Shown piece by piece: positions 41,004-48,842 of a stretch of 64,000 bases of DNA. Source of the DNA: an uncultured Candidatus Saccharibacteria bacterium. GTDB lineage: Bacteria > Patescibacteriota > Doudnabacteria > UBA920. The first letter of the stretch is position 1. Every line of letters starts with the position of its first letter. A program made the position numbers and the translations under genes. The notes beneath the pieces were generated by a model. That model worked only from the letters and a program-made list of their open reading frames with translations. It was not told where the DNA came from and made no database searches. Location: the NCBI GenBank assembly GCA_964474825.1, contig CAYYWQ010000001.1, positions 1,189 to 65,188 of the forward strand, given 5' to 3'.

Positions 41004-41038
41004 TATTGATAAAATATCAACATAATGATAAAATATCT
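41004..41038 (+). promoter_or_regulatory. Probable sigma-70 promoter for the intron-containing tRNA
   Basis: TTGATA-N17-TAAAAT, with the 12-mer tgataaaatatc directly repeated. Confidence 0.4.
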
Positions 41039-41094
41039 AAGACAATTGAATATTGTCTATATTCGGGAGTAGCTCAGCGGTAGAGCAATCGGCT

Positions 41095-41632
41095 GTGAAT
41101 CCGCCTTTATCAGTAAGCTATAATATATGGCTGATACAAGGAAATATTCCGACCGCGCAGAGTATCTTAAAAAAGCAGTTGATAAAAGACGCAAAAAGAT
41201 CAAAACCATGGCCATTGCCTATAAGGGCAATAAGTGCACATTCTGTGGTTATGATAAATGCGCCGGAGCCCTAGAGTTCCATCATCTTGACCCAAAAGGA
41301 AAAGATTTTGGACTAGGACAAAATGGTTTAACCCGTTCTTGGGAGAAGACCAAAAATGAACTAAACAAATGTGTATTAGTTTGCTCCAACTGCCATAAAG
41401 AAATTCATGCAGGTCTGTTGCAGCCTTCTCAAGTAATTGAGAACGGAAAAACGAGGTGAATTGCTGGAAACCTTTAAAATGGTAATCAGCAGCCAAGCCC
41501 CACCAATGTGGGGAAGGTTCAGAGACTATCTCGCAAGAGAGTACTTAGATCGAAAGATCTTGGGAAGCCCCTCGCATCCCTCCATCGGGGATGATGATAT
41601 AGTCCACTCTTAATAGAAATATTAAGGCAAGG
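41095..41632 (+). mobile_element. Group I self-splicing intron carrying a homing-endonuclease ORF
   Basis: The internal guide sequence GGCUGA (41129-41134) pairs with the exon-1 end UCGGCU, with a U.G pair at the splice site. Adjacent UAUA can form P10 with the exon-2 start UGUA. Conserved core elements are present: P aattgctggaaac, Q aatcagcagcc, R gttcagagactatc and S gatgatatagtcc (the last close to the S consensus AAGAUAUAGUCC). The terminal base is G. Confidence 0.8.
41127..41459 (+). CDS. HNH homing endonuclease, intron-encoded
   Basis: CTFCGYDKCAGALEFHHLDPKGKDF...CVLVCSNCHKEIHAG is an HNH motif with a Cys4 zinc scaffold. The ORF lies entirely in the peripheral P1-P2 region of the intron, and its stop codon abuts the P element. 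Confidence 0.75.
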   Translation: MADTRKYSDRAEYLKKAVDKRRKKIKTMAIAYKGNKCTFCGYDKCAGALEFHHLDPKGKDFGLGQNGLTRSWEKTKNELNKCVLVCSNCHKEIHAGLLQPSQVIENGKTR

Positions 41633-41794
41633 TGTAACCGATGGGTCCTGGGTTCGAATCCCAGCTCCCGAGCCAACAAAGGACATCTCTTAAATGGAGG
41701 TGTTTTTTGTTTAAAAAATGTTAAGTTAAATAGAATGCTGAATAATAAACCTGGTATGATATACTAGCTTAAGAAGCCTTAAAGGCTCGCCCGT

Positions 41795-48563: not shown

Positions 48564-48842
48564 ATTTTTCACCTCCTCTCGGTGTATTAATAATAAATAA
48601 TTTAATTTACAGTCGCATCCGCAACAGTTAAAATAAAATTTAGGAAAAATAAAAACCGAACACTCTATTACAATGTCCGGTTTCGCCACTGGCCTATCCG
48701 TGATTATAAGGCGACCAAATAATAAATCACGGGTTTTCGGCTTACACTTTATTTAATTCTCTTGCGCATATATTAAAACGAATATCTAACAAGAAAGTTA
48801 CATTTTATGTTGAATAAAATTAACTTCTTGGTTAAAAGGGTT

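Follow-up and report, generated by a model that had tools for sequence, protein, structure and literature searches.

The 64,000-nucleotide (nt) stretch of DNA analyzed here (the window; contig CAYYWQ010000001.1, from an uncultured Candidatus Saccharibacteria bacterium placed by GTDB in the Doudnabacteria) very probably carries a gene for tRNA-Asn(GUU) of a bacterium of the Patescibacteria (candidate phyla radiation, CPR) that is interrupted between tRNA positions 35 and 36 by a group I intron of subgroup IA, which in turn contains an open reading frame (ORF) for an HNH protein. Two tRNA halves at 41063-41675 on the forward (+) strand bracket an insert of 538 nt; their acceptor arms (TCGGGAG/CTCCCGA) and anticodon-stem arms (ATCGG/CCGAT) are complementary, and G73 and CCA follow. 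A preliminary description of this DNA had rightly recognized the split tRNA gene, the group I intron and its 110-amino-acid HNH ORF with a Cys4 motif; it had also named the host tRNA-Thr(UGU), placed the intron between positions 33 and 34, and proposed a guide sequence and a P10 pairing, none of which held up when homologous loci were compared. The locus thus belongs to an already known class, correctly detected and wrongly read in its details: patescibacterial group I introns that interrupt tRNA-Asn(GUU) at position 35/36 have been described by Nakagawa et al. (mSystems 2026, PMC13011429; preprint 10.1101/2025.07.03.662931) and, according to these authors, were listed earlier as Asn.4Ug in the preprint of Williams (2020; 10.1101/2020.01.27.920355), which introduced tFind and a naming scheme for intron-split tRNA genes.

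The insert matches the Rfam group I intron model (Intron_gpI, RF00028) at 41353-41626 (+) over the full model (1-253), with a score of 91.7 bits against a gathering threshold of 50 and an E-value of 3e-22. Covariation was evaluated on an alignment of 64 homologous cores, extending from the guide sequence to the terminal G, using a structure of 55 pairs drawn from the window sequence. Standard pairs fill 91.8% of the cells of this alignment, compared with 33-47% when the 3' partners are slid; cells with double changes number 695, compared with 113-134 for slid partners, and 43 of the 55 pairs include such changes. In 500 shuffles none of the five observed measures was attained even once. P7, the helix expected to bind guanosine, is invariant in the 64 sequences and hence uninformative in this respect. 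The core elements that the preliminary description had labeled P, Q, R and S correspond to the true P4, P4', P7/J6-7 and P7' strands. Two extra hairpins, P7.1 and P7.2, lie between the 5' strand of P7 and the 3' strand of P3, a signature of subgroup IA, to which Nakagawa et al. (2026) assign the patescibacterial tRNA-Asn class. Five loci (L003, L006, L007, L063 and L072) were excluded from the covariation alignment; in these an additional insert of ~70-100 nt, located between the P3 5' and P4 3' strands, splits the P4 5' strand (GAATTG / insert / CTGGAA), and their cores measure 269-316 nt. Coordinates of the features of the locus are collected in Table 1.

Table 1. Features of the interrupted tRNA gene and its flanks (window coordinates; cells refer to the alignment of 64 cores)
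Feature	Position	Strand	Sequence or basis
Promoter-like site	41006-41034	+	TTGATA, 17-nt spacer, TAAAAT, TG before the second hexamer; 10/12 consensus matches
tRNA-Asn exon 1	41063-41096	+	Acceptor 5' arm, D arm, anticodon-stem 5' arm, C32 U33 G34 U35
Group I intron	41097-41634	+	538 nt, between tRNA positions 35 and 36; RF00028, junctions, core covariation
HNH endonuclease ORF, 110 amino acids	41127-41459	+	In P1 loop; stop TGA 41457-41459
Internal guide	41420-41425	+	GCAGCC; pairs with exon GGCUGU 41091-41096 to form P1; U41096.G41420 at 5' splice site
P2 hairpin	41426-41432/41437-41443	+	UUCUCAA, GUAA loop, UUGAGAA; 98.8% of cells paired; double changes in 7/7 pairs
P3	41452-41456/41570-41574	+	5' strand CGAGG, 3' strand CCUCG; 97.1% of cells paired; double changes in 4/5 pairs
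P4-P5-P6 domain	41461-41517	+	Helices paired in 94-100% of cells; compensatory changes
P4	41461-41466/41487-41492	+	
P5	41471-41472/41481-41482	+	
P6	41493-41494/41516-41517	+	
P6a	41498-41501/41510-41513	+	
P7, 5' strand	41522-41528	+	G, bulged A, GACUA; 41522 and 41524-41528 pair with 41600-41605 (pseudoknot)
P7.1	41529-41532/41537-41540	+	GCAA loop; 98.8% of cells paired
P7.2	41547-41551/41556-41560	+	GAAA loop; 72.6% of cells paired
P8 hairpin	41575-41580/41588-41593	+	88.4% of cells paired; double changes in 6/6 pairs
P7, 3' strand	41600-41605	+	UAGUCC; all six P7 pairs invariant
P9 hairpin	41608-41615/41620-41627	+	GAAA loop; double changes in 7/8 pairs; present in Rfam alignment
Omega-G (terminal guanosine of the intron)	41634	+	G at 76/76 distinct loci
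tRNA-Asn exon 2	41635-41675	+	U36 A37 A38, anticodon-stem 3' arm, variable loop, T arm, acceptor 3' arm, G73, encoded CCA
Terminator-like hairpin	41683-41708	+	ACAUCUC, loop, GAGGUGU, then T run; read off the sequence

Identification of the host tRNA depends on two bases. Plain ARAGORN, run without introns, misses the interrupted gene and calls tRNA-Ser(GGA) alone in the window; when introns are allowed it returns Thr(tgt) i(33,538) for this gene. Two pairs of junctions give an anticodon loop of seven bases, each with U before the 5' splice site and G at the end of the intron. In the Thr(UGU) reading of the preliminary description exon 1 ends in CU at 41094 and exon 2 begins with UGUAA at 41633 (loop CUUGUAA); in the Asn(GUU) reading exon 1 ends in CUGU at 41096 and exon 2 begins with UAA at 41635 (loop CUGUUAA). 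The spliced products of both readings fold as tRNAs, the second of them as tRNA-Asn(gtt), and the window by itself is insufficient to choose between the two.

The choice is made by comparison with homologous loci. The ORF product has 922 homologues, those with named sources being from CPR bacteria, and a scan of species-representative genomes gave 500 stretches that encode relatives of the ORF, of which the best 80 were analyzed. Nearly all of these 80 loci come from metagenome-assembled genomes (MAGs) of Patescibacteria, the closest being MAGs of Doudnabacteria, Saccharibacteria and Patescibacteria with protein identities of 83-89%. In 74 of the 80 ARAGORN places the ORF between the halves of a split tRNA, its calls varying between Thr(tgt) i33 and Asn(gtt) i35 with no apparent pattern; three further loci (L047, L069 and L080) show a like arrangement interrupted by the end of the contig, and the ORF thus lies within the same intron class in 77 of the best 80 loci. 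Junctions and the guide were counted in 76 distinct loci. Exon 1 ends in CTGT in all 76, and a G directly before TAA, the end of the intron in the Asn reading, is likewise present in all 76; the would-be terminal G of the Thr reading is an A in 16, and in two further loci the Thr reading would produce the anticodon CGU. All host tRNAs among the homologous loci share a U1-A72 pair and G73, which we take to be hallmarks of bacterial tRNA-Asn. An intron at position 33/34 of tRNA-Thr(UGU) is contradicted by the A at its terminal base in 16 loci, and the 35/36 junction (41097-41634) is the only one compatible with every locus; because it alone fits all 76, the host is identified by this comparison as tRNA-Asn(GUU), interrupted between positions 35 and 36, rather than as a tRNA-Thr. 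Both true splice sites therefore lie 2 nt downstream of those first proposed (at U41096 and G41634); the intron does end in G, as had been claimed, at 41634 instead of 41632.

This correction comports with published work. Nakagawa et al. (2026) report that ARAGORN and tFind mis-call tRNA-Asn introns, by a two-base shift, as Thr(UGU) 33/34 introns, and the reading first given for the window is this same mis-call. In the same study a homologous tRNA-Asn intron that carries no ORF was shown to self-splice accurately in vitro at position 35/36, as established by sequencing of the product, and a mutant in which the terminal G is changed to C loses exon ligation. The window locus has the same host tRNA, insertion site, GCAGCC guide, P2 with a GUAA loop, core elements and P7.1/P7.2 hairpins as this class, and probably the same phylum, and differs from it by nothing in kind; the window exon sequence was not found in the searched portion of the supplementary tables of that study. 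The authors, surveying complete genomes only, found four tRNA-Asn introns of more than 500 base pairs (bp) that encode HNH proteins, called such copies rare, and inferred limited mobility of the intron. The suggestion in the preliminary description that an HNH-bearing anticodon-loop intron would be a rarity is accordingly out of date: such introns are published for the patescibacterial tRNA-Asn(GUU), and they are common in draft genomes.

The internal guide was located by a positional search beside P2. The sequence GCAGC(Y) occurs immediately 5' of the P2 hairpin at all 76 distinct loci, where P2 is itself a conserved hairpin with a GNRA-type loop; P1 comprises 6 bp in the window and 4-6 bp in the homologues. 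Looking without positional constraint for whatever best complements the exon end was rejected, since many of the hits were fortuitous, among them GCAGTT within Lys-Ala-Val codons and a GCAGCC belonging to the P4' strand. Independent support for the GCAGCC assignment comes from the layout of the intron that was spliced in vitro (GCA_016700035.1), in which the 5' splice site is followed by uaaag, GCAGCC and then P2; its core and that of the window share 64% identity, and it ends in AGGUG before UAACC, as does the window intron. By this comparison the HNH-bearing form is one and the same intron, into whose P1 loop an ORF has been inserted. The ORF, which had been described as starting inside the guide, fills the P1 loop because the guide lies inside its 3' end.

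The guide first proposed, GGCUGA at 41129-41134, consists of the G of the ATG start codon and the next five bases (GCT GA), i.e., the beginning of the ORF. Among the 71 distinct loci on which it was tested it forms at least 5 bp in one, and in 55 it offers trivial G.U pairing only. The P10 proposed together with it, UAUA with UGUA, depends on the wrong junction and falls with it. The complementarity of 7 bp between AUCGGCU (41088-41094) and GGCUGAU (41129-41135) is confined to the window lineage (1 of 71 loci) and is probably due to chance, though locally it could hide the ORF's start codon.

From its start, 30 nt past the 5' splice site, the ORF extends over the guide, P2 and the P3 5' strand; across all loci its stop codon is found 13-178 nt beyond the point where the guide begins. 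The codon of Gln99 (CAG), which is nearly invariant, doubles as part of the guide. The protein is an HNH nuclease with the motif C-x2-C...HH...C-x2-C-H, of which residues C37, C40, H52, H53, C86, N88, C89, H90 and H94 are invariant or nearly so in 24 diverse homologues, and it matches the PHROG HNH families 2255 and 3106 with E-values of 2e-28 and 2e-24. An AlphaFold model (mean predicted local distance difference test score, pLDDT, 73.8) consists of an N-terminal helix and a zinc-bound HNH core, and its best Foldseek matches in the PDB are HNH nucleases (Cap5, ZRANB3, Gme HNH, Cas9 HNH and T5 SciA). Over the first 97 codons, compared with nine relatives, differences at codon positions 1, 2 and 3 number 163, 101 and 369. 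This excess of third-position changes indicates purifying selection on the protein outside its overlap with the ribozyme. Its most likely role is in homing.

The same tRNA gene is also found without the intron, as the preliminary description had suggested looking for. When metagenomes were scanned with the Asn-spliced sequence as query, an uninterrupted tRNA-Asn gene was recovered on 20 contigs, and in 8 of these it is identical over all 75 nt to the spliced tRNA predicted for the window; an HNH relative is encoded on none of the 20. Flanking genes are shared between the window and four of the intron-less contigs, with nucleotide identities of 74-83% for L088, L093 and L094 and of 65% for a gene common to L092 and L093. 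Among related organisms one tRNA gene is thus found both interrupted and intact, and presence and absence of an intron at identical tRNA-Asn alleles is the pattern expected of gain and loss.

Two features of the assemblies themselves were observed in this comparison. Seven of the 80 contigs (L027, L031, L043, L047, L060, L068 and L080) stop 206-256 nt past the end of the ORF, i.e., around the 3' exon of the tRNA, that of L047 a few bases into exon 2; the contig of L069 ends inside the intron core. Assemblies perhaps break at the tRNA-Asn locus as a result of strain differences downstream of the tRNA or in the presence of the intron. In addition, many MAGs with a tRNA-Asn intron of the patescibacterial type (e.g., L010, L013, L017, L021 and L023) are titled 'uncultured Gammaproteobacteria' or 'Pseudomonadales', which probably reflects loose taxonomy at the level of the record and not the true hosts.

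These results suggest the following course of events. A single precursor transcript of the whole gene would be made, in which P1 would arise from pairing of GGCUGU (41091-41096) with the guide GCAGCC (41420-41425) and would close a loop of 323 nt that contains the HNH ORF, and the P2-P9 core would fold downstream (41426-41627). Free guanosine would then attack after U41096, after which G41634 would take the site in P7 and the exons would be ligated, giving a tRNA-Asn of 75 nt with the anticodon loop CUGUUAA. The HNH protein would act as a homing endonuclease that cuts intron-less tRNA-Asn genes near the insertion site, and repair of the cut would copy the intron. Splicing of the window copy, DNA cleavage and homing by its protein, and the source of the message for that protein are the parts of this scheme that we infer.

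Several observations weigh against this interpretation. P1 is short and almost invariant, which follows from the invariance of the anticodon loop, so that covariation cannot support it, and its support comes from position and conservation; indeed no usable covariation was found in P1, as the A found at position 31 in 12 loci is not compensated on the side of the guide, leaving a P1 of 4 bp in these. No convincing P10 was found either, i.e., no conserved pairing of the first bases of exon 2 with those on the 5' side of the guide, the sole possibility being AAC with GUU, with one base skipped and in a stretch that is not conserved. For the protein, no match above cut-offs was found in Pfam or NCBIfam, the Pfam HNH model (PF01844) scoring 16.6 bits against a cut-off of 21.4; sequence matches in the PDB are marginal (E-values of 0.04-0.07, to the endonuclease domain of a group II maturase and to McrA), every Foldseek match is weak (E-values of at least 0.1), and no obvious Shine-Dalgarno-like sequence precedes the ATG of the ORF. 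Finally, the view is one of 64 kilobases of a genome, and a second tRNA-Asn gene elsewhere is possible.

Of the alternatives, the one that retains some weight, improbable as it is, holds that the intron splices while its HNH protein is no longer a homing endonuclease, the intron being inherited vertically; the protein might have been domesticated (for example into a nickase or into a nuclease that acts on a different target) or might be kept because the 3' end of its gene encodes P1, P2 and P3. In its favor, Gln99 and the neighboring codons are constrained by the RNA guide, and a free-standing homologue (L079, described below), in which the last His of the motif is replaced, adjoins an intron-less tRNA-Asn gene that is uncut. 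The purifying selection, however, extends along the first 97 codons, all of them upstream of the ribozyme overlap, the catalytic and zinc ligands are conserved throughout the 24 diverse homologues, and related genomes hold identical tRNA-Asn alleles of which some have the intron and others lack it, all of which counts against this alternative. It is considerably less probable that the interrupted gene is a non-functional relic whose work is done by an intact tRNA-Asn gene elsewhere in the genome: the part examined leaves room for such a gene, tRNA-Ser(GGA) being all that ARAGORN finds there, but the exons are identical to intron-less genes that look functional, the ribozyme core and omega-G are intact and conserved, and Nakagawa et al. 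(2026) find that the interrupted copy is often the sole tRNA-Asn gene and that copies of the same anticodon with and without the intron rarely occur in one genome. Least probable is the tRNA-Thr(UGU) gene with its intron at 33/34 (41095-41632), which both junctions of the window formally fit (U41094 before the 5' site, G41632 at the end), which the 7-bp pairing and the ARAGORN call seem to favor, and which is contradicted by the terminal bases, the anticodons and the guide of its homologues, by a tRNA body that with its U1-A72 pair and G73 matches uninterrupted tRNA-Asn genes exactly, and by the published sequence of a homologue's mature tRNA, from which the intron has been excised at 35/36, the 33/34 call being an artefact of the tools (Nakagawa et al., 2026).

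The interrupted tRNA-Asn gene may be compared with three better-known systems. Phage endonucleases such as I-HmuI, the intron-encoded HNH endonuclease of phage SPO1, and members of PHROG families 2255 and 3106 are likewise HNH (beta-beta-alpha-metal) nucleases within group I introns; however, the phage introns interrupt protein-coding genes and encode larger proteins equipped with additional DNA-binding modules, in contrast to the 110 residues of the window protein. The cyanobacterial tRNA-fMet(CAU) intron, too, is a bacterial group I intron that interrupts an anticodon loop and encodes a homing endonuclease of its own, but it differs in the tRNA, in the site (33/34) and in the endonuclease family (PD-(D/E)XK; I-Ssp6803I). 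The tRNA-Leu(UAA) intron of cyanobacteria and plastids is likewise a group I intron that self-splices from an anticodon loop, nucleotides of the anticodon arm forming its P1; it differs in its site (34/35), its subgroup (IC), its usual length of ~250 nt and its lack of an ORF. The last of these served as a positive control for Nakagawa et al. (2026), who also list PF11645 cases and in whose work tRNA introns outside the Patescibacteria are mostly of subgroup IC, not IA.

On the flanks of the gene, the promoter-like site 29 nt upstream of the tRNA may, judged from its pattern, direct transcription. The terminator-like hairpin downstream received no call in a terminator scan; the stretch is partly conserved past intron-less alleles, BLAST alignments extending to ~41711 in L085, L092 and L093. 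Elsewhere in the window, an Rfam c-di-GMP-II-GAG riboswitch aptamer is found at 48666-48754 on the reverse (-) strand (42.2 bits against a gathering threshold of 40). The 3' end of a 23S rRNA gene occupies positions 1-500, with 76 nt (about 352-427) where the Rfam model has 17, and is followed by a 5S rRNA gene at 651-766; no group I intron was matched by Rfam in 1-766.

In three of the genomes analyzed a homologue of the HNH protein stands free of any intron. In a Zambryskiibacteriota MAG (L081:1501-2155, JANLIM010000042.1) a gap of 10 nt separates the end of the free-standing homologue from a downstream tRNA-Asn gene, which is interrupted at 35/36 by an intron of 244 nt with no ORF, with the guide GCAGC 8 nt past the 5' splice site; this HNH ORF has CAA as its Gln codon, which has ceased to serve also as a guide. 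In L079 (1480-1889, JAUYKS010000012.1) the homologue, with the sequence ..CHREVEAG.. at the replaced His, ends 15 nt upstream of the intron-less tRNA-Asn(GTT), and it may represent a transitional stage, or else a leftover, of the linkage of endonuclease gene and intron. In L078 (524-814) no tRNA-Asn exon lies near the homologue, and a tRNA-Ala(GGC) gene is located just downstream on the opposite strand. Variants of the L081 and L079 types are not described by Nakagawa et al. (2026), where the phrase 'free-standing' does not occur.

Beyond that study the present comparison makes small additions, namely that the HNH-bearing form is widespread in draft genomes, that the guide lies inside the ORF, and that two loci have the HNH gene outside the intron. 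For annotation, a locus such as that of the window would be read as a missing tRNA-Asn or as a spurious extra tRNA-Thr, which distorts estimates of genome completeness based on tRNAs in Patescibacteria; the published remedy, comparison with intron-less homologues, works at the window locus. As the HNH-bearing form is far commoner in draft genomes than the four cases from complete genomes, the inference of limited mobility is weakened. A more tentative idea, for which the odds are at present rather unfavorable, is that the link between HNH gene and intron is recent and fluid, and that translation of the ORF and formation of P1 are mutually exclusive, since the 3' codons of the ORF (Leu-Gln-Pro in the window) double as the guide, so that expression of the endonuclease would be coupled to splicing; if this were true, L081 and L079 would represent surviving intermediate stages in the passage of an endonuclease gene into an intron or out of it.

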